From: a virus
Taxonomy: Duplodnaviria > Heunggongvirae > Uroviricota > Caudoviricetes
Direction: 5' to 3' (one strand)
Virus record (IMG/VR): IMGVR_UViG_2627853910_000001
Length of the DNA: 46,177 nt
In this document: positions 1 to 43,012 of the stretch, piece after piece
How positions within the stretch are numbered: position 1 is the stretch's first letter
How the letters are laid out: each line of letters starts with the position of its first letter
Position numbers and translations under genes: made by a program
The notes under the pieces: model-generated
What the model saw: the letters and a program-made list of their open reading frames with translations, nothing else
Told to the model about the DNA's origin: nothing
Databases searched by the model: none

Positions 1-484
1 ATTTATTATATCTACGATGGTAGGAAATCTTTTCCTATGTGGCAATAGAAATTTACTACATTGCGTATAAGACAAGTTTTCTATGTCTAATAGGAAATGA
101 TGTTTCTTACGTTTTATCGCGTTCTGATGGCTACTGTGTGCGTATTTATCGACGTTTATTGATAAGGCTCGCCCCTTCCTCCTGCAAAGCCCGGCCGTAG
201 GCCTTATTTCGGCATTATATAAATTGATTTTGTATAGTTCGAAACGCGCCGTTTCGAAAAGGATGATCAGGCTGCTCCATGCCTCCGGCAAGTGCCGGAG
301 GAGGTATATTTGAGCGTAGCGATTCGAACCGGCGCGAGCTTTAGCTCGCTGCAAGGGCGAACATATTCACAGGCAAAGCCTGCGTAAGTTGAATAAAGAA
401 AGTCTTAATAAAAGAAAGTGTTTTTGCATTTATTTGTTTAGCGCATCTATTATAAAAAACCATTTGCATATACATATCAAAACT

Positions 485-493
485 GTGGATAAC
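485..493 (-). promoter_or_regulatory. DnaA box (TGTGGATAA on plus = TTATCCACA on minus) in AT-rich region downstream of repA; putative oriR
   Basis: Exact 9-mer match to DnaA box consensus, surrounded by AT-rich sequence downstream of the repA stop. Confidence 0.45.
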
Positions 494-633: not shown

Positions 634-1482
634 TTAATGTTGGAGTGATTTCCAGGTCTTTCTTAACCTGTTATAACGCTGCTCAACGAGGGATCGTAAA
701 TATGCAAGGTCAGCACCTGGATACATGCCATCAGCAAATTCCTGGCTAACCTCTCTAGTGATTTGATGACGAAGTTCGGCCTCTCCCTTTTCCTGAACAA
801 GACGCGCAGCTCTCTCCGCTGCTTTCTGTTTTGCCTTTATCTCTCTGGCCGTCTTCCTCTGACGCCATACATTCTCCATCTGCTCCTGAATAACAATACG
901 CTTATAATCAGCCTCCGTTATCGCTTTTTTAAGCCGTTCGCTATTCTTCGCATTGAAGTAATTAAGTTTCTGGCTAACCGCACGTCTCCATGCTTGTTCA
1001 GTAATACCGACGGTTTCCAGCAGTTGATCACGAATCTCTATTTTCGCTGGCCAATACTGTTTATTCACCCGATCCCAGCGACGTTCATAATCAATAAAAC
1101 CTAACGCTTTCAGTTGCGACAACGCCCTTGTACAGCGTGTTATAGACTTGTTCCCAGCTTCGGATACGGTAGACAGGCCGCAAAAATCAGCCAACGCCTC
1201 AGCACTGGCCAGAACCCGCTTAGAAATGATGTTTACATGGTGCAAAATCGCAGCAATCACAGCATTAATCGCCCGACGACGATGCTCGTTTATCCGGCGC
1301 TTCCGCTCTGACGGTTGATTAACGTAGAACGCAACCTCACACGTAAGATCACGACCATTAATGCGCTGTAAAGCATCAGATAACACCAGCGGCAGCTTGT
1401 GCGTATGGTGCTTTGGAGGCTGGAACTCCGGCGACAAATTACAAACGTAAGCTGAACGTAGAGACGGCATTGGTCTATCCAT
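634..1482 (-). CDS. repA: Plasmid replication initiator RepA, IncFII (RepFIIA)-like
   Basis: Translation has blocks typical of IncFII RepA1 as recalled (RRRAINAVIAAIL..., GLSTVSEAGNKSITRCTRALSQLKALGFIDYERRWD); start trimmed to internal MDRPMP (282 aa) from the 337-aa track ORF. Confidence 0.7.
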   Translation of the reverse strand: MDRPMPSLRSAYVCNLSPEFQPPKHHTHKLPLVLSDALQRINGRDLTCEVAFYVNQPSERKRRINEHRRRAINAVIAAILHHVNIISKRVLASAEALADFCGLSTVSEAGNKSITRCTRALSQLKALGFIDYERRWDRVNKQYWPAKIEIRDQLLETVGITEQAWRRAVSQKLNYFNAKNSERLKKAITEADYKRIVIQEQMENVWRQRKTAREIKAKQKAAERAARLVQEKGEAELRHQITREVSQEFADGMYPGADLAYLRSLVEQRYNRLRKTWKSLQH

Positions 1483-1526
1483 ATGTTCGCTCTTGCGTCC
1501 ACGGAAAACCAACGTATAATGGGAGT

Positions 1527-1608
1527 TGTCGAGGCGCCCATGGATTGTTGTTGGTTTTTGTTTCCGTGGATGTCGCAAGAAGCCCGCAGATTTATCTGCG
1601 GGCTTTTT
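1527..1608 (+). ncRNA. Candidate CopA-like antisense RNA in the repA leader
   Basis: Plus-strand TATAAT at 1515-1520 with weak -35 TTGCGT 16 bp upstream; intrinsic terminator at 1581-1608; lies antisense to the leader just upstream of repA, as in IncFII replicons. Confidence 0.3.
1581..1608 (+). terminator. Rho-independent terminator (stem AGCCCGCAGA/TCTGCGGGCT, loop TTTA, T5)
   Basis: 10-bp stem followed by TTTTT on plus strand only. Confidence 0.55.
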
Positions 1609-1652
1609 GTTTCCATATCTGGTCACTTTCCAACCAGACACCCACAATCATA

Positions 1653-1667
1653 ACCACGTTACGTGGT
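1653..1667. promoter_or_regulatory. Perfect 15-bp palindrome ACCACGTTACGTGGT upstream of repA (CI-operator-like)
   Basis: Half-site ACCACG identical to left half of operator at 37979-37993 next to the CI-like gene. Confidence 0.4.
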
Positions 1668-1797
1668 TTTAAGAGAACTCTACCACAACACTTTCGGTCA
1701 TGCACGAAGTCTCTCACTGATCGAACGATAATCCACCAGTAAAAGGATCTAAATTGGATCTCGTTTTGCGAGCATCATACTACTGGCCTAACTCCAG

Positions 1798-2352
1798 TCA
1801 ATGATTCCCAGCCGGAAACCTGCGGTAAAGCGTGGATAAGGTAACATCGAAGATAATCGCTATCCGCTTACGTGAAACACCATTCGCAATAAGCCTTCCG
1901 ATCTGTTCCCATTGCTCTGGTGCCAATTTTGAGCGGCGTCCTCCTATCCTGCCGTTAGCCCTTGCCACCGCCAATCCTGCACGCGTTCTTTCAATCATAT
2001 TTTCCCGCTCCATCTCTGCGACTGCACTCAGCATCGTGTAGGCAAAGCGGCCAATTGAAGTGCTAATTTTTATCCCTTCCGTAATCGAAATAAACTCAAT
2101 GTTGTTTGATAAAAAATGGTTAAGTAAATCAACAAGATGAATCAGAGAACGCCCCATTCGGTCCAGCTTCCAGACAATAACCGTATCGCCCGGCTGTAAC
2201 ACCTTAAGTAGCTTATCAAGTCCTGGTCGTTTTGATTTAGCACCGGATATTTTATCTTCAAAAATCCGGTCACATCCTAAACTCCTGAGCGCCTCCAGTT
2301 GTAATTCCAAATTCTGGTCAAAAGTTGACACCCTCGCATAACCATATTGCAT
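1798..2352 (-). CDS. Serine recombinase, DNA invertase of Hin/Gin/Pin/Cin family
   Basis: N-terminal YARVSTxDQ catalytic motif, resolvase core, C-terminal HTH; adjacent to gix-like crossover site. Confidence 0.9.
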   Translation of the reverse strand: MQYGYARVSTFDQNLELQLEALRSLGCDRIFEDKISGAKSKRPGLDKLLKVLQPGDTVIVWKLDRMGRSLIHLVDLLNHFLSNNIEFISITEGIKISTSIGRFAYTMLSAVAEMERENMIERTRAGLAVARANGRIGGRRSKLAPEQWEQIGRLIANGVSRKRIAIIFDVTLSTLYRRFPAGNH

Positions 2353-2450: not shown

Positions 2451-3387
2451 TCAGGCTTCTGGCGCATTACAGAAAAACCAGAACGGTGCAGATATTCCGA
2501 ATAAAGATAAATTCATACAAAACACAGGGGCCTGTCGTGCATTTAGCGGTCAGACTGATATCGATGGTTCACAAGGTGCATGGTCGACAGTTGCATTTAT
2601 CTCGTGGCTGGAGAATAACGGAGCTTTCCGACATCCATACTGGATGTGTAAAGGGTCATGGTCCTATGCCAGAAACAGGGTTATTACGGATACCGGTTGT
2701 GGAAATATCTGCCTTGCCGGAGCCGTGATTGAGGTTATGGGAACCCGCGGCGCAATGACCATACGCGTTACCACGCCGAGCACGTCCAGCGGTGGCGGAA
2801 TTACTAACGCTCAATTCACTTATATTGATCATGGTGATGCTTATGCCCCCGGCTGGCGACGAGACTACAACACGAAAAACCAGCAGCCTGCATTTGCTTT
2901 AGGGCAAACAGGAAGCAGGGTTGCAAATGATAAAGCTGTTGGCTGGAACTGGAATAGCGGTGTTTATGATGCAGATATCAGCGGTGCATCGACATTAATC
3001 CTCCACTTCAATATGAATACGGGGAGCTGCCCTGCTGTACAGTTCCGCGTGAATTACAGGAACGGCGGTATTTTTTATCGTTCAGCGCGTGATGGTTATG
3101 GATTTGAGGCTAACTGGTCAGAGTTTTACACCACGACCCGCAAACCCTCTGCGGGAGATGTTGGTGCATACACGCAGGCAGAATGTAACTCAAGGTTTAT
3201 TACAGGTATTCGCCTTGGCGGTCTGTCATCTGTTCAGACATGGAATGGTCCCGGCTGGTCTGACAGGTCAGGTTATGTCGTTACGGGTTCAGTTAACGGA
3301 AACCGTGATGAATTAATTGATACAACTCAGGCAAGGCCAATTCAGTATTGCATTCATGGGACGTGGTATAACGCGGGGAGTATTTAA
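2434..3387 (+). CDS. Alternative tail-fibre C-terminal cassette (silent orientation, no own start expected)
   Basis: Begins at the crossover site with residues ([14 protein letters not shown]) matching the join in the expressed fibre (QETVNRAGNAVQKN); conserved C-terminal GTWYN motif in both. Confidence 0.7.
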
Positions 3388-3389
3388 TT

Positions 3390-3923
3390 ATGATGCACTT
3401 AAAAAATATTACTGCTGGCAACCCTAAAACAAAAGAGCAATACCAGCTAACGAAACAATTTAACATCAAATGGCTTTATACAGAGGATGGGAAAAACTGG
3501 TATGAGGAACAAAAGAACTTTCAGCCTGATACGTTGAAAATGGTCTATGACCACAACAACGTTATTATTTGTATTGAAAAGGATGTTTCAGCAATTAATC
3601 CAGAAGGCGCAAGCGTCGTTGAGGTTCCTGATATTACAGCAAATCGCCGGGCTGATATTTCTGGTAAATGGATGTTCAAAGATGGCGTAGTGGTAAAGCG
3701 AACTTATACCGAGGAAGAGCAGAGGCAGCAGGCGGAAAATGAAAAGCAAAGCCTGCTACAGCTCGTTAGGGATAAAACCCAGCTATGGGACTCACAGCTA
3801 CGGCTGGGCATCATTTCCGACGAGAATAAACAAAAATTAACCGAGTGGATGCTCTATGCGCAGAAAGTCGAATCTACAGACACCTCCAGCCTGCCAGTAA
3901 CATTTCCCGAACAACCTGAATGA
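3390..3923 (+). CDS. Tail fibre assembly protein (Tfa), partner of the silent cassette
   Basis: Paralogue of 3952-4482 (shared [12 protein letters not shown]...[12 protein letters not shown]...GKWMFKDG). Confidence 0.8.
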
Positions 3924-11200: not shown

Positions 11201-13985
11201 AACTTAATCTCCGTTGTTGGAACATATGAGCACTCAATTTCTTCTCAAAATCAGAATATCCCGCATCTAATGCTCTTTTAGCTGCCGCCTCAGTTTCCTT
11301 TGGTGAACCAGCCGGAAGATTGATTACAGGTGAATAGGTTATTCCACCAGTCACAGCGTTAACGTTCTGGCGAAGTCCAGAACTCCCGGCAGCAGAGATC
11401 CCGTGAGGTGATAAATTTGATTGCCCGAACTGGGTTGCGATTGCATTCTGTAAGCTGTTATTTCTGCTAACACCAGATGCCAGAGTAGTCATTATTGCAC
11501 CACCTGACTTTGTTAGCTGTGAGAATGGACCTTTTTTCGCATCAGAGAACGGTAAATACTCACGAACAGAAGAAAAAACGCCTTTCACCTCATTGATTAG
11601 AGCATTTGCTTTTGATTTTATCCCTGTGATTAACGTCTCAATTATTTTTGCGCCTGACTCACTCCAGTTTATTCCAGACAAATAAGCTGTTACAGATTGA
11701 AATGCTCTTATAAAGAGTCCAACGGGTGAAAAACGCATAAAAACAGATACCAGTGTATCTATGATTTTCTTTCCTGTTTCGCTCCAGTTAATGCCAGAAA
11801 GGTAATTTGTTGTAAGTTTAAATGCTTTAATTAAGAACGGAAGCGGAGACATCCATTTAAAAGCACTAATTAATGTACTGTAAATTCTTACTCCTGCCGA
11901 ACTCCAGTTTATGTTGGAAAGATAATCCCATGCTTTACCAAACATAGATATAATCCATCCATTGAGGTCAAAGTTTAAGATAAAGTTTTTTATAGCCTCA
12001 AATGATTTAACTGTATATTCCTTAACAGAAGGCCAAACTCTGACAGCATAATCTCTGATCTTATCCCAGTTCTGATAGAGCAATATTCCTGCGGCAACCA
12101 GCGCAGATATAGCCATCTGAATCCACCCGAAGGGTGTTAGCTTTGTCGCTACAGATAAAGCCAGCATAGCTACCCTACACGCTATAACCACACTTTTCAT
12201 GGTTAGAAACGCACCTGCCGCCATCACAATCTGAGACACAAAATTGGGGTTGTTAGCTACAAATTCACTAATTTTTGTAATCAGCGGAACCAAAACACTA
12301 AGCGCGGCATTCAAAGCTGGTTGCAAGGCCTGACCAAAACTTAATGATGCATTGCTAGCCTGAATACGTAATTGTTTCAATCGCTCCGCATTGTCTTTCG
12401 TTATGTTGGCAAAATCGCGGTCAATAACAGCACTTCCAGCCCCAAGAGATGTTGCTTTGATTCTCTGGTATTCCTTCCAGTTTTGAATCATCGGACGAAC
12501 AAAGTTCTGAACCTGCATATCGCCAAATAGCTCACCAAGTAACTTCTGATCTCCGTTCTTAGTCATTTTCATGACAGAATGCATTGCAGCTTCGAATGGA
12601 TTCTTCCCTTTTTTCTGCGCTGTTGTGACAATTTTATATAAATCTACACCGAAATTTTTCTTTGCTTTTTTTAGTGTTTCAGGGGAAAGTATTTTCGCCA
12701 AAAAGTTGTTCATATTATTAGCAGCCTCATCCGAAGTTGCAGCACCTTTGCGAGCTATCTGCAAAGCTGCCCCCATCGTCGCGGCGGCTTCTTTACCTCC
12801 CATTTTTAATGCCTGGAACTGAGCACCAAGCACAGGAAGATTTTTGGCCATATCTTTAAATTCAAAGTTTCCCTCTTTCCCTGCCTGAACCAGAATCCCC
12901 ATTGCAGACTTCATTTGAGATGGATCAATCTTCAATGAGTCACTTAATGTAAATGATGCTTTCGAGACATCGAGGATATCAGAGCCAGTAGCTGTAGCTG
13001 TTCTCCCAATAGTTAGTAGATTCGCCTGAGCCTCTTTATAATCCTGCCCAGCAGCGACAAGAAAACCCTGAGCGGCCTGAATATCAGATGCAAACTGGTT
13101 GGTGGCCGTTCCAGTAACAAGCATCGCCTGCCCCATCGCCTGAACTTCTTCCGGCTTCATATCTGCCGTAAGACCAATCATTTTGTTTTCACGATTGAAA
13201 TTTGCTGCATTGTTAGCAGCAGCAAATGCACCAGCCGCTACAGCACCAGTTTGTAATCCTGACCTTACAAGTTGACTCTTTGCCTCACCAAGATGCTCTC
13301 GCTTCAATTCACGCTGCCTTTCCAACGCGCGGTTTAACTCCTCCTGAGCACGTTTTACTGCAAGAACATTTTTCCGTGCTTCAGCCAACGCATTTTTATA
13401 GCTGTTAATTTTATCAATACGTTGTTTTTCTAATGCCCGGTTAAGTTCCTCCTGCTGTTTTTTCACTTGCTGAACATTTGCTCTGGCTAAAGCCAAAGCC
13501 GTTCTGTAGCGGTTAACCTGCTCAACGCTACGGGCCTGAGCCTCACGATTACGATCAATGCTTGCTTTAAGCTCTTTCTCTCTTGAGGCTAAAGCTCTGG
13601 CAGATGTATCAGCTCCCTGATACGCAGACTTTAAAGCGGCCAGTTCTTCACGCTGAGAACGTAGTGATGCTCGTAAATTTGATGAATGTGTTTTTGCCTT
13701 CTCAAAGTCACGAAGCATCGCTCTGGTTGGATTGGCCGTGTTTTTTATTTGCTTCTGTAACTCTTCAACGCGAGCAGCAGCTTTATGATATTCGAGGGCA
13801 GTCTGTCCAACCTTTACTTTTACAGATTGTAGCTTTTGAATTTCCCCATGTTCTTTCGTTAATCCAGCAAGCTCTGCATTTAATTTAGCAACAGCCTGAT
13901 TAGCTGTAGTAAAACTTTTGGGGAGAGAGGCGGCAACTTTGCCGCCAATTTCAAAAGCCAGCTTAAAGTTCTTATTGCTGGCCAT
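11193..13985 (-). CDS. Tail tape measure protein
   Basis: 930 aa, long coiled-coil N-terminal half with internal repeats, hydrophobic central segments; downstream of frameshifted chaperone. Confidence 0.8.
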   Translation of the reverse strand: MASNKNFKLAFEIGGKVAASLPKSFTTANQAVAKLNAELAGLTKEHGEIQKLQSVKVKVGQTALEYHKAAARVEELQKQIKNTANPTRAMLRDFEKAKTHSSNLRASLRSQREELAALKSAYQGADTSARALASREKELKASIDRNREAQARSVEQVNRYRTALALARANVQQVKKQQEELNRALEKQRIDKINSYKNALAEARKNVLAVKRAQEELNRALERQRELKREHLGEAKSQLVRSGLQTGAVAAGAFAAANNAANFNRENKMIGLTADMKPEEVQAMGQAMLVTGTATNQFASDIQAAQGFLVAAGQDYKEAQANLLTIGRTATATGSDILDVSKASFTLSDSLKIDPSQMKSAMGILVQAGKEGNFEFKDMAKNLPVLGAQFQALKMGGKEAAATMGAALQIARKGAATSDEAANNMNNFLAKILSPETLKKAKKNFGVDLYKIVTTAQKKGKNPFEAAMHSVMKMTKNGDQKLLGELFGDMQVQNFVRPMIQNWKEYQRIKATSLGAGSAVIDRDFANITKDNAERLKQLRIQASNASLSFGQALQPALNAALSVLVPLITKISEFVANNPNFVSQIVMAAGAFLTMKSVVIACRVAMLALSVATKLTPFGWIQMAISALVAAGILLYQNWDKIRDYAVRVWPSVKEYTVKSFEAIKNFILNFDLNGWIISMFGKAWDYLSNINWSSAGVRIYSTLISAFKWMSPLPFLIKAFKLTTNYLSGINWSETGKKIIDTLVSVFMRFSPVGLFIRAFQSVTAYLSGINWSESGAKIIETLITGIKSKANALINEVKGVFSSVREYLPFSDAKKGPFSQLTKSGGAIMTTLASGVSRNNSLQNAIATQFGQSNLSPHGISAAGSSGLRQNVNAVTGGITYSPVINLPAGSPKETEAAAKRALDAGYSDFEKKLSAHMFQQRRLSFG

Positions 13986-19459: not shown

Positions 19460-19957
19460 TTATCGCCGTTGTTTTCTTGGTTGATTAACATCAACTGAAT
19501 CATTCACCTCATTTGCGTCTTCTTGCCGTTGATTAAGAAAGTTTTTGTTACGCGCTCGCTCTGCATTCATAATTTCCAAAGCAAGTTCAGCCGCAGAAAC
19601 TCCCGTTTTGAATTTTGCATTCTTAACCAGGTCGTCATGACCTGGAATCACGCTATTCTCGATTGTTTCAATGCGCTCGCGTTCTGATTTAACGCCCTCG
19701 TCTTTACCAGCATTAAAAACCTGATTGTATAATTCTGGATGTTTATTTTTTAATTCATCAAGAGTCACAACATCGTCCTCATTTTGTTCATTTAATTCAG
19801 TAGATAATTCATTTTTATTTTGTGGCAACTTTGCGAGAGAATCAGGTAATTTTGAAAACCTTGATGCTTCAAAAGTTATTCCATTGAGCGAAAGCATCCC
19901 TTCCTTTATAGAAGCGGATAAGCGCATTGGTTTTTTCAACTTCGTCAGCAAATCCAA
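19460..19957 (-). CDS. Scaffolding protein (Nu3-like), overlaps 3-prime end of protease gene
   Basis: Acidic, helical 165-aa ORF; true start uncertain. Confidence 0.45.
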   Translation of the reverse strand: MDLLTKLKKPMRLSASIKEGMLSLNGITFEASRFSKLPDSLAKLPQNKNELSTELNEQNEDDVVTLDELKNKHPELYNQVFNAGKDEGVKSERERIETIENSVIPGHDDLVKNAKFKTGVSAAELALEIMNAERARNKNFLNQRQEDANEVNDSVDVNQPRKQRR

Positions 19958-31725: not shown

Positions 31726-31801
31726 TGGTGGCCCCTACCGGATTTGAACCGATGACCGTGCGATTATGAGTCGCCTGCTCTAACCACTGAGCTAAGGGGC
31801 C
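31726..31801 (-). tRNA. tRNA with CAU anticodon (Ile2/lysidine-type or Met)
   Basis: 76-nt cloverleaf GGCCCCTTAGCTCAGTGGTTAGAGCAGGCGACTCATAATCGCACGGTCATCGGTTCAAATCCGGTAGGGGCCACCA; acceptor and D-arm identical to E. coli ileX-type tRNA as recalled; encoded CCA. Confidence 0.85.
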
Positions 31802-36956: not shown

Positions 36957-37468
36957 TGATGGCCCCCGTCATTTCTGGTGCTTTTCACCGTGCGGCTTCT
37001 TAAAAACCTGCCATCACGAACAACAGACACTTCTCGTTTACCCAACCTCATTTCACGGCGGTAACATTCAGAAAATGCCTCGTCCGGCATCATATAAATG
37101 CGACGCTTCGCCTCCGTATCCAGAAGGGAACGGCTTGGGGTTACATATAAAAACGACTCATCAATAGGGACAAAACCACGAGCAAGAATTGCTGGCAGAA
37201 TGCCAGGAAGAACGCAGAAAACAGCTCCACGATGCAGCAACATCTGGTACTCCATGACCTCCGTTATCCCCGTGACTACTGTTACGGTGTCACGTCTGTT
37301 ACGGCTGGCAACCAGTCGCTGCACACGTCCAATTTTCTGATCTACAGATAGATGTTTGCTATCGTTATCAATATGATCGATAACAAATCCTTTAATCGTT
37401 TGATCAAGGTAGTGCACCACCTGCGATTGAATCTGGTGATTATCACCAAAGAAGGCCAGAATCATCAT
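36953..37468 (-). CDS. Hypothetical early protein
   Basis: 171-aa ORF in early operon. Confidence 0.35.
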   Translation of the reverse strand: MMILAFFGDNHQIQSQVVHYLDQTIKGFVIDHIDNDSKHLSVDQKIGRVQRLVASRNRRDTVTVVTGITEVMEYQMLLHRGAVFCVLPGILPAILARGFVPIDESFLYVTPSRSLLDTEAKRRIYMMPDEAFSECYRREMRLGKREVSVVRDGRFLRSRTVKSTRNDGGHQ

Positions 37469-37959
37469 TCCTCAAGCCTCCCAAGTGCTGAACGCCGGGC
37501 GTTGCTAATCTCCTTATGAATCAGCTCGATATCGCTGGAATCTTTATTCTTAAGCTCCAGCACGGTAATCGCATCACGAACCTCTGAAACGGTTACGTGT
37601 GAGTGTTTCCAGCGAGCAATGAATCGCGGACCGCGTAGATTGCAACGCTCCGCAGGCATCCCCAGCTCAGAGAAAACCGCTTTCAGCCTTGATAAGCAGT
37701 TAACAGGGAGATTCCCTTTGATCTTGTTCTGCCGAACCGATGTGCCATCGCTACGCTGGCGCTGACGTTCGGCAAAATCTGCCGCCCATTGCTGGACGTT
37801 AATCCGGCCTTCCGAATACGCCACCAGCAGCGTCAGGTTATCCGCACGAGGGAATCTCTCGAAGCGATACCAGGCACCAATCAGTGATGACGTAAAGCCA
37901 AACTTTCTGGCAACACCAATTTGGCCTCCATTTTCGTCAACCCACTCCTGAAAGGTCAT
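37465..37959 (-). CDS. First early-operon protein, Cro/YdaS-like HTH N-terminus
   Basis: Divergent from CI-like gene across operator region; GGAG RBS. Confidence 0.4.
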   Translation of the reverse strand: MTFQEWVDENGGQIGVARKFGFTSSLIGAWYRFERFPRADNLTLLVAYSEGRINVQQWAADFAERQRQRSDGTSVRQNKIKGNLPVNCLSRLKAVFSELGMPAERCNLRGPRFIARWKHSHVTVSEVRDAITVLELKNKDSSDIELIHKEISNARRSALGRLEE

Positions 37960-37978: not shown

Positions 37979-38014
37979 ACCACGATATGTGGTATTAAAA
38001 CCACATATCGTGAG
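37979..38014. promoter_or_regulatory. Two adjacent 15-bp operators (ACCACGATATGTGGT and inverted copy)
   Basis: Same 15-mer in opposite orientations between divergent Cro-like and CI-like genes. Confidence 0.55.
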
Positions 38015-38081: not shown

Positions 38082-38096
38082 ACCACTAAATGTGGT
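38082..38096. promoter_or_regulatory. Third operator ACCACTAAATGTGGT adjacent to TATAAAT -10 upstream of CI-like gene
   Basis: Same ACCAC-N5-GTGGT architecture; TATAAAT at 38101-38107. Confidence 0.45.
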
Positions 38097-38133: not shown

Positions 38134-38790
38134 ATGAAAAGCAACGACGAGAACATCAAGAAAGAAATAGGTCTGCGCATTCAGACTCTACGGAAACAAT
38201 CCGGCATGACTGCCGGAGATCTCCAGCAAGTCACTGGAATAGGCTTAAGCACCTTGCAGAACTATGAGGCCGGATTAAGACAACCATCGATACCTGCCAT
38301 CAAGAAAATCGCGCACGCCCTGAAAGCATCAGCGCCTTATATCGCGTGCTTAACAGATAACCCGTTCCCACCCCAGAATACTAACGCTCCTGTTATTCCT
38401 GGGCTTGTAGCTATAAAAAATGACATAGCATCGCACGCCGGAGAAAAGCCAGTGCTGGCGATAGAACAGGAGATTCTACGAAGCAAGAACATCAACCCAT
38501 CGTCTCTGTCAGTTCTCCAGAGCAACGATGAGTTAATGTCACCAACAATATCCCCTGGCTCCCAAGTCCTGATTAATACAGACGATACAGAGATTCATGA
38601 GGGGATCTATGCCCTTGAAGACAGAAATGGCCTGGTTGTTTTGAGGCACTGTAGAGTCATACCGGGTGACAATGCTGTTATGCTGTCAACCGAAAGGGAT
38701 GCTGAAATGAACACTAAGCATCTGAATAACGAGGAATTTAAGCGTTATAAAGTTCTTGGCCGCGTAGTTAGTGTTGTCAACTGGTTATGA
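38134..38790 (+). CDS. CI/LexA-like repressor (N-terminal HTH, C-terminal S24 peptidase-like domain)
   Basis: HTH (MTAGDLQQVTGIGLSTLQNYEAG) plus C-terminal autocleavage-like domain. Confidence 0.75.
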   Translation: MKSNDENIKKEIGLRIQTLRKQSGMTAGDLQQVTGIGLSTLQNYEAGLRQPSIPAIKKIAHALKASAPYIACLTDNPFPPQNTNAPVIPGLVAIKNDIASHAGEKPVLAIEQEILRSKNINPSSLSVLQSNDELMSPTISPGSQVLINTDDTEIHEGIYALEDRNGLVVLRHCRVIPGDNAVMLSTERDAEMNTKHLNNEEFKRYKVLGRVVSVVNWL

Positions 38791-38832: not shown

Positions 38833-38847
38833 ACCACATTATGTGGT
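38833..38847. promoter_or_regulatory. Perfect operator palindrome ACCACATTATGTGGT overlapping TTGACA upstream of 38883 gene
   Basis: Palindrome ends inside the TTGACA hexamer at 38849-38854. Confidence 0.45.
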
Positions 38848-38882: not shown

Positions 38883-39257
38883 ATGGAATTACATACAGCC
38901 AATAAAAATGAAACTCTGATCACTGCTGGAATCGAAATCCAAGCGTTGAACATAGCGATTGAGTGTATGTTATGCCAAATCATTGATAATGAGAAAGATA
39001 TCGACTGGATAGAATCTATCCTTCATCTGGCATCAGAACAAAAAGTCTGCCTCAAAACGGCCTTGCAATACGATGTGCCAGCGGTATCGAAGCTGTGCCA
39101 GCCATTGATGGCATATAACAGGGCTATTATTTCTGTATGCCTCATGATTCTTGATGAAAACACTCCTCTTAGCGACCGCTCAGAAGCTGCTCTAACCCTC
39201 TCACGTAAACAGCGACAGCTAGCAAATCAACTGATATCAACGATAGCTGACCTCTGA
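38883..39257 (+). CDS. Hypothetical protein downstream of repressor
   Basis: 124-aa ORF with AAGAGG RBS. Confidence 0.4.
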   Translation: MELHTANKNETLITAGIEIQALNIAIECMLCQIIDNEKDIDWIESILHLASEQKVCLKTALQYDVPAVSKLCQPLMAYNRAIISVCLMILDENTPLSDRSEAALTLSRKQRQLANQLISTIADL

Positions 39258-39283
39258 CTGCAAGCGGGCTAACGCCCGCTTAT

Positions 39284-39392
39284 ATGATTATAGATTTATA
39301 TAATTATATAAAACGCTTTCCATCCGCCAAAAAGTTGGTTATGCTTACCTCGTTCTATAAATATAGATTTATAGAATTATATAACCAAACAC
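39284..39392 (+). promoter_or_regulatory. AT-rich iterons upstream of parA (candidate centromere/operator)
   Basis: ATTATAGATTTATATA at 39287-39302 and variant at 39362-39377. Confidence 0.45.
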
Positions 39393-39407
39393 ATGGAGTC
39401 TCGACAA

Positions 39408-40061
39408 ATGACTATCTCTGTAGGTATTTTCAACGGAAAAGGCGGCGTAACCAAATCAACAATTGCCCGTGCTTTAGCAGTTGCTTATGCAAAGGCTGGC
39501 TGGAATGTATGCCTGATCGATATGGATGTGCTTAACGGAACGGTAACGCGTTGGGTACAACGCAGAATGGCCAACAATATCGAACCAGCAATCGCGGCGC
39601 AGCCGTGCGGCACACCATCACAAGTCCAGAAAATCATCGAATCAGAAGTATACGACCTGGTTATCGTTGATGGCGGTGCCTACGCATCTGAATCAGTACC
39701 GAAGCTATCTGAATTTCTGGATATGGTTATTTTGCCAACCCGATTCTCTACCGATGACCTGGAAACCACCGTTAACACTGCTCACGGCATCGTTAAAAAG
39801 GGTGTGCCAATCAAGAAAATTTGCATGGTGTTTTCCGGCGCGGCTGAAAATGAAGCTGACTATATTGAAGCCCAAGAGTACCTGGCTAATACGCCATACT
39901 TTGTTGTCGATAAGTACATTCCCCACAAGCCAGCTCTGAGCAAAGCTCAGGATAAGGGCTTAAGCCTCATTGAATGCTCATACGTTGCGCCACGCAAAAA
40001 GGCAGACGACGTTATTCAGGGGATTATCAACCAGCTTGAGGCTCTGACTACTGCCGCGTAA
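39408..40061 (+). CDS. parA: ParA-family partition ATPase
   Basis: Deviant Walker A GKGGVTKST; start set at ATG with GGAG RBS (track ORF begins 39393). Confidence 0.8.
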   Translation: MTISVGIFNGKGGVTKSTIARALAVAYAKAGWNVCLIDMDVLNGTVTRWVQRRMANNIEPAIAAQPCGTPSQVQKIIESEVYDLVIVDGGAYASESVPKLSEFLDMVILPTRFSTDDLETTVNTAHGIVKKGVPIKKICMVFSGAAENEADYIEAQEYLANTPYFVVDKYIPHKPALSKAQDKGLSLIECSYVAPRKKADDVIQGIINQLEALTTAA

Positions 40062-40104
40062 TATATAATTATAGTTTTATAGATTTATATAAGAGGGGAT
40101 ACAC

Positions 40105-40353
40105 ATGGCCGCACCATCAAAACCACCAAAGAAGAACAGCAAAGGCGTACCGCCATCGATCGAACAACCGCAGGTTTTCGACCCGACTGAAACGCCAACC
40201 AGAACCAAATCAGGTGGGGCACAAATGGCGTTTAACGTCGACCCTGAATTTAAACGCGAGTACAAAACGTTCGCCAGTTCAATGGATATGTCATTGAAAG
40301 AAGTGCTGACAAAATCTTTTGAGTTACTCAAGGCTCAATACAACCAGAAGTAA
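40105..40353 (+). CDS. Small partition partner, ParG/RHH-like centromere-binding protein candidate
   Basis: 82 aa directly after parA; disordered basic N-terminus then helical C-terminus; iteron TATAGATTTATATA immediately upstream. Confidence 0.5.
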   Translation: MAAPSKPPKKNSKGVPPSIEQPQVFDPTETPTRTKSGGAQMAFNVDPEFKREYKTFASSMDMSLKEVLTKSFELLKAQYNQK

Positions 40354-40565: not shown

Positions 40566-40750
40566 ATGTAGCCATAAAAAAGGCGGGCAACCAACCCGCC
40601 TCATTAGAGGTCAACGTCTCTTAGAAACCATCAAATTCGTCATACCGCTTTTTCATATCAACCCCGTATTGAAATCGTAACCACATCTTGTGGCTCTTAC
40701 GGTATATAAGCTACTGCAATGGTAAACAGCTATCAAATGCAGGTTGCAGT

Positions 40751-40772
40751 AAAAAAGGCCCCCGAAGGGGCC
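40751..40772 (-). terminator. Terminator GGCCCC-GAA-GGGGCC with T-run on minus strand
   Basis: GC stem; A6 on plus strand upstream gives T6 after hairpin on minus. Confidence 0.5.
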
Positions 40773-40778
40773 TAATCG

Positions 40779-40901
40779 CTACTTGCTGCTAATGTTTATC
40801 GTCACATTCAGAGCGTTATCAGTAATCTTCCAACCCTCCCCATGTGGCGTAAACAAAGCTCCAGTAACAACGATAAAAATACACATACAGTATTTTTTCA
40901 T
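40779..40901 (-). CDS. Small hydrophobic peptide (40 aa), candidate type I toxin or small membrane protein
   Basis: MKKYCMCIFIVVTGALFTPHGEGWKITDNALNVTINISSK; terminator 7 nt downstream. Confidence 0.35.
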   Translation of the reverse strand: MKKYCMCIFIVVTGALFTPHGEGWKITDNALNVTINISSK

Positions 40902-40966
40902 TGTGTGGCCCTTACAGGCCGTTTCACGGCATCTCCACCGACGAAAATGACGCGAGAGCAAGCACT

Positions 40967-40983
40967 CCGCTTGTGCTTGCGTG
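40967..40983. repeat. 17-nt direct repeat CCGCTTGTGCTTGCGTG (copy 1, in putative 5-prime UTR of small ORF)
   Basis: Identical 17-mer at 41216-41232; copy 1 sits in an 8-bp hairpin. Confidence 0.7.
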
Positions 40984-41149
40984 TACGGCAAGTGGATGAT
41001 CCTTTCCTTAAAGTCGGTGCCCGGGTGCGAATCGGCGAAAAGGCCCCAAGCCATATTACACGTCCTCGCCTTCATAATGAAGGAATAACAATTGCTTTTA
41101 TTACATGTAATTACATCCGAAGAAGTTAAAAAACTTCATTCTGCATGAA

Positions 41150-41334: not shown

Positions 41335-41349
41335 CCCACGCTATGTGGT
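41335..41349. promoter_or_regulatory. CI-operator-like site CCCACGCTATGTGGT upstream of antirepressor operon
   Basis: 14/15 match to operator at 37979-37993. Confidence 0.4.
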
Positions 41350-41552
41350 TGTCTCTGTTAAAATCCCGCCGTATTGACATGAATGCGCCATTGGTGGACA
41401 CTTTCCGAGCCGTAGCAAAATCTACGGCCGGGATTGGCGTCCCGATAATCATCATGGCGCATACCGCGTTAGCGGTTTTTTTATGCGTAAAGCACGGCTA
41501 CACCCGAATTATGGTGGGGCGTGCGGGGGAGCCGTAAGGCTCGCCGGGTATC

Positions 41553-41840
41553 ATGATGACCGGTTACGCCAACCCTGTACGTCTCACCACCTCACTGATT
41601 GGCGTCAGCGGTGGTGATTATTCCAATATCAAAACTGGAACTATCATCATGACAAACTTACCCCATGACTATTACGTCAACCTCGTAAAGATCCTTCTCA
41701 AGAAAGCCTCATACGCCGATAAATTCCGCCTGGCTGAAATCATCGAGCGCGAAGCTATGCGCATCGCCAGCAACGATAACGCTGTTTCTGACGCAAAAAT
41801 CTCCCTCGTAACCAAAGTAGTTATGGGAGGTGCAAAATGA
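41553..41840 (+). CDS. Hypothetical protein translationally coupled to antirepressor (icd-like position)
   Basis: Stop overlaps antirepressor ATG (ATGA). Confidence 0.4.
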   Translation: MMTGYANPVRLTTSLIGVSGGDYSNIKTGTIIMTNLPHDYYVNLVKILLKKASYADKFRLAEIIEREAMRIASNDNAVSDAKISLVTKVVMGGAK

Positions 41841-43012
41841 AAACGCTTCCGACCGTTAACACCCTACAACCTATCCTGCATAACCAGCTCCCCGTTATCA
41901 CTACTGAACTACTGGCAAAGCTATACGGCACAGACGTTGATAACATCAAAAAAAATTACTCACGTAACGCAAACCGCTTTATTGAAGGAAAGCATTTTTT
42001 CAAAGTGGCTGGCGATGAGTTAAAAACTTTGCGAGTGACTTTAAGTCACTCACAAAATTTGCGGGTAGCTTTAAACTACTCACAAAATACCATCTCCCCA
42101 AAAACCCGCACCCTCATCCTCTGGACAGAACGCGGGGCTGCACGTCACGCCAAAATGCTCGAAACCGATCAGGCGTGGGATGTATTCGAACGGCTGGAAG
42201 ACTGCTATTTCAACCAGAACGCGAAAACGGCAGCGACCGTAACCGTCTCGCCAAACAATGCTCGTGAGGTCGTCGATACGCTCAACGCCAAACCGATGTT
42301 TTACATTAAGGTGTGCAATAACGAGCCACTCACAACCTCAGCCGATGTTGCCCAGGCATTCAGCACCACAAACAATTCCATCGTTATGGCCATCGATGCG
42401 TTACGCATTCCTCGCACAGCTGCGGCACGTCATTTCTTTAAAGAGCAACGACCGCTGGAAGGAAGCGACCGCGAAATAACAATCTATCGCATGACAAAAG
42501 ACGGATTTACCTTGCTCATGGAAAGTATCGACGGTCCAGGCGTGAAGGATATCAAGCTGGCCTACATTGAAGCCTTTAACGCTATCAGCAGCGTGTTAAA
42601 AACACAGTACGAGCGCGATCTGGCTAAACGACTGTACCAGGAAAAAACGATTATCCGCGCGGCAACAGAGCATAATCGGCTATTAACGGAACCGAACTAC
42701 AGGAAGGAACTAATCAAGGAGTTTGACAAGGCAACAGGGAAAACCAAAGCGGCGCTAAATCTGCCAGCAATGACTCAGGAAAATGTGATATCAGCCTTAC
42801 TTCTTGATCTACTCAGAAACGCCAGAGCACTTATCAGCTTTGACGAAAACCTGAATCCTCAACTCAAGCTACTACCACCGACAGGCAAAGTAGTCGACCA
42901 GGCTGATCACAACAGCATACTCAGCGTACTGGATGCAAACCTGCCAACCAGGACACTACAGGATCTGATAAAAACATGTGCTGATAAGCTGGCACAGAAA
43001 AGCAGACCATAA
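41837..43012 (+). CDS. Antirepressor (ORF6N/Rha-like domains)
   Basis: N-terminal ITTELLAKLYGTDVDNIKKNYSRNANRF and central PMFYIKVCNNEPLTTSADVAQAF segments typical of phage antirepressors. Confidence 0.7.
   Translation: MKTLPTVNTLQPILHNQLPVITTELLAKLYGTDVDNIKKNYSRNANRFIEGKHFFKVAGDELKTLRVTLSHSQNLRVALNYSQNTISPKTRTLILWTERGAARHAKMLETDQAWDVFERLEDCYFNQNAKTAATVTVSPNNAREVVDTLNAKPMFYIKVCNNEPLTTSADVAQAFSTTNNSIVMAIDALRIPRTAAARHFFKEQRPLEGSDREITIYRMTKDGFTLLMESIDGPGVKDIKLAYIEAFNAISSVLKTQYERDLAKRLYQEKTIIRAATEHNRLLTEPNYRKELIKEFDKATGKTKAALNLPAMTQENVISALLLDLLRNARALISFDENLNPQLKLLPPTGKVVDQADHNSILSVLDANLPTRTLQDLIKTCADKLAQKSRP

Follow-up and report, generated by a model that had tools for sequence, protein, structure and literature searches.

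The repA locus and its relatives

The stretch of DNA analysed here (hereafter the window) is IMG/VR record IMGVR_UViG_2627853910_000001, 46,177 nucleotides (nt) in length, which represents a myovirus phage-plasmid of about 46 kb. Its replication gene, repA, encodes an initiator that matches Pfam PF02387 over profile positions 2–272 of 275 (E = 6.1e-44; score 150.9 bits, cut-off 22.9) and has homologues of 85–58% identity over 277 amino acids (aa). Upstream of repA we find a candidate antisense RNA gene, a perfect palindrome and two putative repA promoters (Table 1), and it is the control of repA by these elements that we describe here. In plasmids of the IncFII type the replication origin, oriR, lies downstream of repA, and a perfect DnaA box on that side of the gene likely marks the equivalent position in the window.

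A 2-kb region around the repA control site is 98–100% identical to ~60 circular, non-mobilizable plasmids of 46–52 kb from Escherichia coli, E. albertii, E. fergusonii and Klebsiella aerogenes, including the 48.5-kb plasmid of the reference strain ATCC 25922 (NZ_CP009073.1, corresponding interval 12,885–13,243). Three database entries submitted as phages of Yersinia (vB_YpM_39, 41 and 44) match the region as well. The control region is present in 71 of 5,426 complete E. coli genomes (~1.3%), plasmid-borne in every case. Annotated relatives carry a complete set of myovirus morphogenesis genes and an invertible tail-fibre segment with its invertase, as well as a ParA-type partition operon, a toxin–antitoxin pair and a single replication gene, repA. 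With this gene content, and with the control region always on plasmids, the element is a phage-plasmid. Annotation of the ATCC 25922 and Salmonella elements lists no helicase, no primase and no second replication initiator besides repA, and no protelomerase is annotated in the relatives, whose records are circular. A search of the literature library, including by accession, returned no description of replication control in this phage-plasmid family. For comparison we distinguish E. coli-type relatives (RepA at least 99% identical to that of the window), group A (elements of Salmonella, K. aerogenes, Yokenella and Citrobacter amalonaticus; RepA 80–85%) and group B (Citrobacter and metagenome elements; RepA ~60%, CI ~28% identical).

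The palindrome upstream of repA belongs to the immunity operator family

The original prediction for this region described a TATAAT box at 1515–1520, a terminator at 1581–1608 and a perfect palindrome at 1653–1667 with half-sites like those of the operators beside a CI-like repressor gene, and direct reading of the sequence places all three at these positions. The core palindrome, ACCACGTTACGTGGT, lies 45 bp past position 1608 and consists of two 7-bp arms separated by a single T; one further pair lengthens each arm to 8 bp in the full site, which we term O-rep. The sharing of half-sites extends to a family: four exact copies of the pattern ACCAC-N5-GTGGT are present in the window, at 1653, 37979, 38082 and 38833, and the latter three flank the cI-like gene. 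With up to one mismatch there are nine matches against 0.70 expected. For the longer AACCAC-N5-GTGGT the four exact sites (1652, 37978, 38081 and 38832) compare with 0.03 expected and with none in 100 shuffles, which excludes a chance origin of the family.

All 16 E. coli-type sequences compared have O-rep unchanged. In the Salmonella, K. aerogenes, Yokenella and C. amalonaticus elements the half-sites AAAACCAC/GTGGTT stay constant and the 5-bp spacer varies (GTAAC, GTTGT, GATGC, GATGT and ACATC in five group-A lineages with ~25% diverged flanks); constant half-sites around a free spacer are the signature of an operator for a dimeric helix-turn-helix (HTH) protein. The elements of Salmonella, K. 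aerogenes and C. amalonaticus have four sites arranged in the same way, one of them ahead of repA; their control regions are only ~75% and their CI proteins 60–66% identical to those of the window.

In group B, the aligned position upstream of repA holds TTGACTACAAAACGTAGC in place of O-rep. Its 8-mer GACTACAA is found four times in 20.8 kb against 0.38 expected, once at repA and three times in the cI–cro spacer, where the half-sites are spaced 21 bp apart; a second group-B locus (L019) repeats this pattern, and the motif was not found in the control and immunity regions of the window. The change from group A to group B, ACCAC to ACTAC and GTGGT to GTAG(T/C), is accompanied by substitutions where the recognition helix of CI begins. 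The HTH helix TGIGLSTLQNYEAGLR is invariant in the group-A proteins despite their overall identity of 60–66% and is replaced by TGIPRSTIQNYEAGIR in group B, such that the recognition helix reads GIGLSTLQNYE in all of group A and GIPRSTIQNYE in group B (GL versus PR at its start). The palindrome was not found in the related replicon of a type IV secretion system (T4SS) plasmid that lacks CI. These comparisons support the view that the palindrome is one of the operators of the immunity system and that, in group B, its specificity has changed along with that of the immunity region. The operator family and the co-change in specificity likewise support the earlier suggestion that plasmid replication may be wired to the phage repressor.

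In both groups, adjacent immunity operators lie 21 bp apart from centre to centre, or two helical turns (37979–37993 and 38000–38014 in the window; 19540–19588 in locus L006), a spacing that suggests cooperative binding. We also considered RepA as the protein that binds the palindrome and ruled it out: no such site is present in the oriR region (1–633), and three copies surround cI.

Two putative repA promoters and no copB

The interval of 327 nt from the invertase stop codon (1798) to repA contains no copB-like open reading frame (ORF), in agreement with the original prediction; we found only unconserved read-through frames, which are broken by indels in relatives. Two candidate promoters read toward repA. 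The upstream one, P1, is conserved as TTGAC(T/G)-16-TA(T/G)(G/A)AT in groups A and B, and its predicted start lies ~100 nt upstream of the operator. At the place of the downstream one, the predicted P2, the sequence TGnTA(G/A)AGT is conserved in both groups, and the palindrome starts ~9 bases after this −10 element. The operator would therefore cover about +2 to +18 of P2 and lie at about +100 of P1, positions at which a bound repressor blocks transcription. Given the predicted P1/P2 pair, the operator and the lack of copB, the region reproduces the PcopB/PrepA arrangement of plasmid R1 (PMC5717011), a CI operator standing where R1 has its CopB site. A TATGAT just after the palindrome was ruled out as the −10 of repA, as relatives have TACGAT, TAAGAA or TAAGTA there, and preference was given to the conserved TGnTAGAGT upstream.

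Just downstream of the P1 start, two GATC sites stand exactly 11 bp apart (1746–1749 and 1757–1760), and group B has three GATC sites at 11-bp spacing in the same place. These sites may allow Dam/SeqA sequestration that ties repA transcription to replication.

A candidate antisense RNA with a hypervariable loop

From the TATAAT box, the plus strand is predicted to yield a short RNA of two hairpins. The second of these, AGCCCGCAGA-TTTA-TCTGCGGGCT at 1581–1604, is followed on the plus strand by TTTTGTTT up to 1612; on the minus strand, TCTTGCGA comes next. Since the T-run is absent on the minus strand, the hairpin is expected to terminate plus-strand transcription only. An 86-nt RNA with these predicted ends folds at −41 kcal/mol (z = −6.6). 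The TATAAT and its 16-nt spacing are invariant in all group-A and group-B relatives, in which the −35 reads TTGCGT or TTGCAT, and the two-hairpin shape is predicted for all 12 distinct group-A and all three group-B sequence variants. In the group-A alignment, 99.1% of the cells in the antisense stems are paired, and each helix contains one pair with a compensatory double change, GC to AU in stem-loop I and AU to GC in the terminator. Our consensus scanner lists neither the promoter nor the terminator because the −35 matches at three of six positions and extension of the stem swallows the T-run.

Variation is concentrated in one part of this RNA. Among 16 near-identical E. coli-type control regions, 25 of 364 alignment columns vary; 11 of the 25 fall in 1544–1560, within the stem-loop I loop, while the palindrome and the promoters show no variable column. 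A diversifying loop within frozen surroundings is the pattern of antisense loops that determine incompatibility (PMC10724649).

The original prediction described this RNA as CopA-like. The layout and the role are upheld by fold, conservation and co-variation; homology to CopA is not, as Rfam returned no match to CopA (RF00042) or any other antisense family, whether in the whole window at the gathering threshold or in 1400–1850 at E ≤ 10, where the matches were confined to weak ones with leader or terminator hairpins. The countertranscript is complementary in silico to the repA leader, as is typical of IncFII-type systems, and taken together these features support a role for it in acting against that leader.

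A predicted three-way switch in the repA leader

In the repA-sense RNA, segment X (CUUGCG...CCACGGAAA..AACCAAC, read from 1579 to 1550) is complementary to segment Z, which lies directly upstream of the repA ribosome site and whose DNA doubles, on the plus strand, as −35 and spacer for the antisense promoter. As the partner of X, the target of the antisense RNA, Z imitates the 3' half of the antisense stem-loop from within the leader itself. The long X:Z helix is the minimum-energy fold of every variant in groups A and B; its sequences are wholly different between the groups, and only the architecture is shared. In group A, 97.3% of X:Z cells are paired, and compensatory changes are seen at two pairs (GC to AU in four sequences, AU to UA in two). 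None of 500 shuffles reaches the co-variation score, and slid controls pair at 42% or less. The isolated X:Z hairpin has a folding energy of −37.7 kcal/mol (z = −5.9). RNAalifold run on a mixed MAFFT alignment of groups A and B missed the long helix, since that alignment misplaces the 5' arms, and we used folds of single sequences and group-specific counts instead.

Two in-frame codons are candidate starts for repA: the AUG at 1470–1468 (MPSLRS..., which aligns with relatives) and the AUG at 1482–1480. In constrained folds with X blocked, Z pairs with the start region, covering both AUGs in the window (−19.7 kcal/mol, z = −3.4) and including the Shine–Dalgarno (SD) sequence in group B. We infer the direction of this switch from the logic of the I-complex and IncL/M plasmids, in which the antisense RNA prevents a pairing that is required for rep translation (PMC8053102). 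The combination of target, anti-target and start codon is new here, as predicted from these folds, and resembles the I-complex and IncL/M systems more than the CopA/tap system of R1.

Comparison of the repA leader across relatives revealed no conserved short ORF that could encode a tap- or repY-like leader peptide. An ATG at 1541 opens a long out-of-frame ORF, has no SD and is missing in group B. The ATG at 1616 is missing in the Salmonella and K. aerogenes relatives, yet in many others (L001, L022, L024, L025, L027–L029) the Prokaryotic Genome Annotation Pipeline (PGAP) begins a repA of 325–326 aa at the equivalent ATG. In the window and in other variants this codon is out of frame with repA through indels in the loop. 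Because the loop indels break the frame, we consider the N-terminal extension to be an annotation artefact over the antisense RNA gene; the 326-aa 'RepA' that spans this gene (1483–1616, minus strand) is thus a recurrent annotation error that can be corrected.

Group-B elements contain an extra ORF of 158–162 aa that resembles the N-terminal half of RepA (28–31% identity) and lies between the leader and full-length repA, overlapping the repA start (loci L005, L006 and L032, at ~9516/9528–10004; L019, at 3340–3717; and L020). The group-B leader switch, as modelled, appears to gate this RepA-like first ORF.

Table 1. Positions of the features described in the repA control region and the immunity region of the window
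Feature	Position	Strand	Basis or remark
O-rep, CI-type palindrome AACCACGT-T-ACGTGGTT	1652..1668	.	about +2 to +18 of predicted P2 start
P2, predicted repA promoter, extended −10 TGgTAGAGT, no good −35	1677..1685	-	start predicted near 1670
P1, upstream promoter TTGACT-16 nt-TATGAT	1774..1801	-	scanner match 10/12; reads toward repA
Antisense RNA promoter TTGCGT-16 nt-TATAAT	1493..1520	+	TTGCGT 1493–1498, TATAAT 1515–1520; conserved in groups A and B
Candidate antisense (counter-transcript) RNA, ~85 nt	1527..1612	+	fold, conservation, co-variation; 5' end placed from the −10
Stem-loop I	1533–1574	+	18-nt G/U-rich loop 1545–1562, hypervariable
Terminator hairpin and U-run	1575/1581–1604/1610	+	perfect 10-bp GC-rich stem
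Leader segment X, CUUGCG ... CCACGGAAACAAAAACCAAC	1550..1579	-	predicted target of antisense stem-loop I; 5' arm of X:Z helix
Leader segment Z, CGUUGGUUUUCCGUGG + A + CGCAAG	1492..1514	-	3' arm of long leader helix
repA, IncFII-family replication initiator	634..1482	-	PF02387 match and homologues
Perfect DnaA box TTATCCACA	484..492	-	read from sequence; 142 bp past repA stop
Cro-like early gene, 164 aa, no Pfam family	37465..37959	-	divergent from cI
Immunity operator ACCACGATATGTGGT	37979–37993	.	exact site, cI–cro spacer
Immunity operator ACCACATATCGTGAG	38000–38014	.	weaker site, 21 bp from first
Immunity operator ACCACTAAATGTGGT	38082–38096	.	exact site, cI–cro spacer
cI-like repressor gene	38134..38790	+	XRE-type HTH and degenerate S24-like C-terminal domain
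Fourth exact operator ACCACATTATGTGGT	38833..38847	.	behind cI terminator, ahead of orf124-parA; kept in relatives

The immunity region and the repressor

The cI-like gene product matches HTH_3 (E = 4.5e-11), and its C-terminal domain scores 18.4 bits against Peptidase_S24, below the cut-off of 23.3. In the position where self-cleaving repressors have GDSM, the group-A proteins have DELM and the group-B proteins DDLL; self-cleavage is therefore unlikely, and CI is probably not cleavable through RecA. Taken with the C4-type RNA and the ORF6N/Ant-like gene described below, this makes relief by an antirepressor likelier than RecA-mediated cleavage.

Several further sites were noted around this region. 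The fourth exact operator stands between the cI terminator and orf124-parA-parG-like genes (38883–40353), and given this position the partition operon may also be controlled by CI. A near-operator with one mismatch, AAACCCACGCTATGTGGTT at 41335–41349, comes right after a terminator and upstream of a TTGACA; downstream of it are an isrK-like RNA (41409–41482), a C4 antisense RNA (41507–41594) and the ORF6N/Ant-like gene (41837–43012). The layout around 41335–43012 resembles the immI region of phage P1 with its repressor-controlled promoter. Another near-operator with one mismatch, TAACCACATCTTGTGGC at 40680–40694, lies beside a minus-strand match to the ryfA RNA family (135 bits) at 40751–41048.

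A two-layer model for control of repA

We propose that replication of this IncFII-family phage-plasmid is under two-layer control, by an antisense RNA and by a CI operator that takes the place of the CopB site, and we put the probability of this reading at roughly 60%. In the first layer, a constitutive countertranscript of ~85 nt would pair through the loop of its stem-loop I with leader segment X. When X is free, it would pair with Z and leave the repA start codons open; when the antisense RNA occupies X, Z would fold onto the start codons and RepA would not be made. The dosage of the antisense RNA would set copy number, and its hypervariable loop the specificity of incompatibility. In the second layer, repA would be read from both P1 and P2, with the palindrome covering the P2 start. 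In the lysogenic plasmid state, CI would shut P2 and obstruct read-through from P1, and the antisense RNA would keep copy number low. Inactivation of CI, probably by an Ant-type antirepressor rather than by self-cleavage, would raise repA transcription until it outruns the antisense RNA, such that the same replicon could drive amplification in the lytic phase. This last step is proposed because repA is the single annotated initiator, and loss of CI would then turn the plasmid replicon into a lytic one. With an antisense-RNA gene and a repressor-type site ahead of repA, the lysis/lysogeny switch probably also sets the rate at which the element is copied.

Comparison with known replication systems

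The replicon belongs to the IncFII RepA family, not to the CopA RNA family and not to the N15 type, and by analogy its control region appears to work like a hybrid of the R1, I-complex/IncL/M and N15 systems. The basic replicon of R1 comprises PcopB, PrepA under repression by CopB, the CopA antisense RNA, the tap leader peptide, repA and oriR (PMC5717011). The window shares several features with R1 and R100 (IncFII): its RepA falls in their Pfam family, a repressor site lies on the second of two putative tandem promoters (PMC5717011), a putatively constitutive countertranscript opposes the leader, and a DnaA box lies downstream of repA. It differs from them in that copB is absent and the repressor site matches phage CI operators 9–10 kb away, in that its RNA has neither CopA homology in Rfam nor a conserved tap-like ORF beside it, and in its RepA, which shares only ~31% identity with the classical IncFII protein, and that over part of the length.

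In the I-complex (IncI-alpha, IncB/O and IncK) and IncL/M replicons, a pseudoknot beside the rep ribosome site acts as activator, and the antisense RNA (RNAI or Inc RNA) competes with it (PMC8053102, PMC10724649). The window resembles these plasmids in that the antisense RNA is predicted to target the loop of a leader stem-loop, in that the loop and arm are complementary to a segment beside the rep start that would otherwise sequester the start, and in that specificity would be decided by the loop (PMC8053102, PMC10724649). It departs from those systems on three counts: the pairing is a long alternative helix of 15 + 6 bp in place of a short loop pseudoknot, no leader peptide of the repY/repB type, the translation of which opens structure III in those plasmids, could be found in the window, and the window has a repressor operator, a feature missing from those plasmids.

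The closest parallel for the operator is found in N15 and phiKO2, whose CB repressors, which lack self-cleavage residues, occupy OL operators at the repA promoter, which reduces copy number (PMC4997575). As in N15, phiKO2 and PY54, one operator family serves both the immunity region and the repA promoter; a prophage repressor acting on repA couples copy number to lysogeny (PMC4997575), in the window by prediction; and the repressor has a C-terminal domain devoid of self-cleavage residues and is accompanied by an antirepressor locus. N15 differs in its unrelated, multifunctional RepA, its linear plasmid with telomeres and protelomerase, and its lack of antisense-RNA copy control, whereas the window holds a circular replicon of IncFII type with a single operator, in a myovirus with an invertible tail-fibre segment.

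Phage P1 has a lytic replicon (repL, Op53) controlled by C1 beside an autonomous plasmid replicon, and its immI region consists of the c4 RNA, icd and ant. The window shares with P1 a C4-type RNA with an ant-like gene and, as proposed here, a repressor that gates replication for lytic growth. P1 has two separate replicons, however, and the window has one evident initiator, so that one replicon would have to serve both modes.

Weighing alternative explanations

The protein that binds the palindrome might instead be the 164-aa Cro-like protein or another phage protein, so that the effect on repA would be a modulation in the course of lytic development and not a repression in the prophage state. 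The spacer between cI and the cro-like gene holds the immunity sites, switches of the lambda type share sites between both proteins, and the Cro-like protein, too, diverges between groups A and B (41–44% identity). We nevertheless consider this explanation unlikely, given that the CI helix is invariant across group A and differs exactly where the group-B operators differ, that the repA operators of phiKO2 are bound by CB only and not by Cro (PMC4997575), and that the Cro-like protein has no recognisable HTH family. It is somewhat less probable still that the palindrome is a genuine immunity operator with little effect on repA, serving as a distant auxiliary site that loops to cI–cro in the manner of lambda OL. 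Membership of the same site family and the suggestion of cooperative binding from site pairs 21 bp apart would fit such a role, and the question of looping has been raised for phiKO2 too (PMC4997575); yet the distance of ~9–10 kb around the circle far exceeds the 2–3 kb typical of CI loops, the site falls exactly at a conserved repA promoter element in two diverged groups, and the equivalent sites of N15 and phiKO2 do repress repA (PMC4997575). That the palindrome acts as RNA, forming a 5'-proximal leader hairpin for stability or attenuation and resembling operators by coincidence, strikes us as highly improbable. It is the first hairpin in every leader prediction, and conserved arms around a free centre would suit a stem-loop as well, but this idea accounts neither for the three further copies around cI (0.03 expected) nor for the match between the group-B replacement and the group-B immunity sites, and the group-B version makes a poorer hairpin (ACUAC/GUAGC).

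A different objection concerns the antisense RNA, since the transcript is a sequence prediction, has no Rfam match and has a weak −35. The plus-strand promoter and terminator could then be a structure of the sense leader, or a barrier to transcription entering repA from downstream, with copy number set by other means. We regard this as very unlikely: the T-run is on the plus strand only, the TATAAT and its spacing are invariant over ~40% divergence in RepA, the loop of stem-loop I is a hot spot of variation as in incompatibility-determining antisense loops (PMC10724649), the leader contains a co-varying mimic of the antisense 3' half, and antisense control is the rule among replicons of the PF02387 family (PMC8053102).

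Our estimate for two-layer control by antisense RNA and CI takes account of several points that weigh against it. All of the evidence is in silico, from sequence, comparison, folding and statistics. On the RNA side, the hairpin between Z and the start region is modestly better than shuffles across variants (z from −0.9 to −2.7), an ensemble calculation changes the mean accessibility of the start region little, and compensatory changes are few, two pairs per helix, because divergence is low. On the transcriptional side, P2 has no recognisable −35 and is unlisted by the scanner, CI lacks the catalytic Ser motif, and the Cro-like protein could be the binder, as the sequence does not separate CI, the Cro-like protein or both. 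With regard to the co-change of operator and repressor, the two specificities found in all amount to one evolutionary switch, and replicon and immunity region, being no more than ~10 kb apart, are inherited as a unit. The 58 E. coli-type plasmids are all of one immunity type (immunity region at least 95.7% identical), with no heteroimmune variant among them, and no third operator specificity was found, as all CI homologues at 60–66% identity keep the same helix and ACCAC sites.

Apparent movement of the replicon between element types

In group B, the replicon and its control region adjoin tail genes of a lambda-like siphovirus (loci L033 and L034), and in other loci they stand beside Mu-like baseplate genes (loci L005, L008, L032 and L035). 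A RepA of 63% identity is encoded on the T4SS plasmid (locus L007), with two XRE HTH genes at the position of CopB. From these sequence contexts, the replicon appears to behave as a mobile module that passes between types of element. The XRE genes of the T4SS plasmid were considered as relatives of CI and rejected, as their HTH similarity to it is only generic. The RepA of Arsenophonus (33% identity) has a different genomic context, and a search of genome contigs with the RepA profile gave a single match, a spurious one in Streptomyces. The phage-plasmid also carries a tRNA gene on the minus strand at 31729–31801 of the window (Rfam tRNA, 67 bits).

Implications for phage-plasmid biology

Phage-plasmids need sparing replication in their plasmid state and massive replication in their phage state, and to our knowledge, switching between these modes with a single initiator is known in detail only for linear prophages of the N15 type. 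A broader picture, which we hold tentatively and rate at somewhat short of even odds, is that one IncFII-type replicon serves both lives of the element, with CI having replaced CopB and loss of CI making the replicon a lytic engine; that the fast-evolving antisense loop sorts co-circulating phage-plasmids into incompatibility types; and that the replicon, operator and immunity block moves together between P2-like and Mu-like myovirus and lambda-like siphovirus backbones. The predicted circuit is compact and testable: a stretch of 350 bp accommodates a pair of promoters, a single operator, a single antisense RNA and the three-way switch in the leader. Should the model be correct, a classical plasmid copy-control module has been rewired to a phage repressor, and the operator half-site together with the antisense loop would provide a sequence rule that predicts immunity and incompatibility among such elements.

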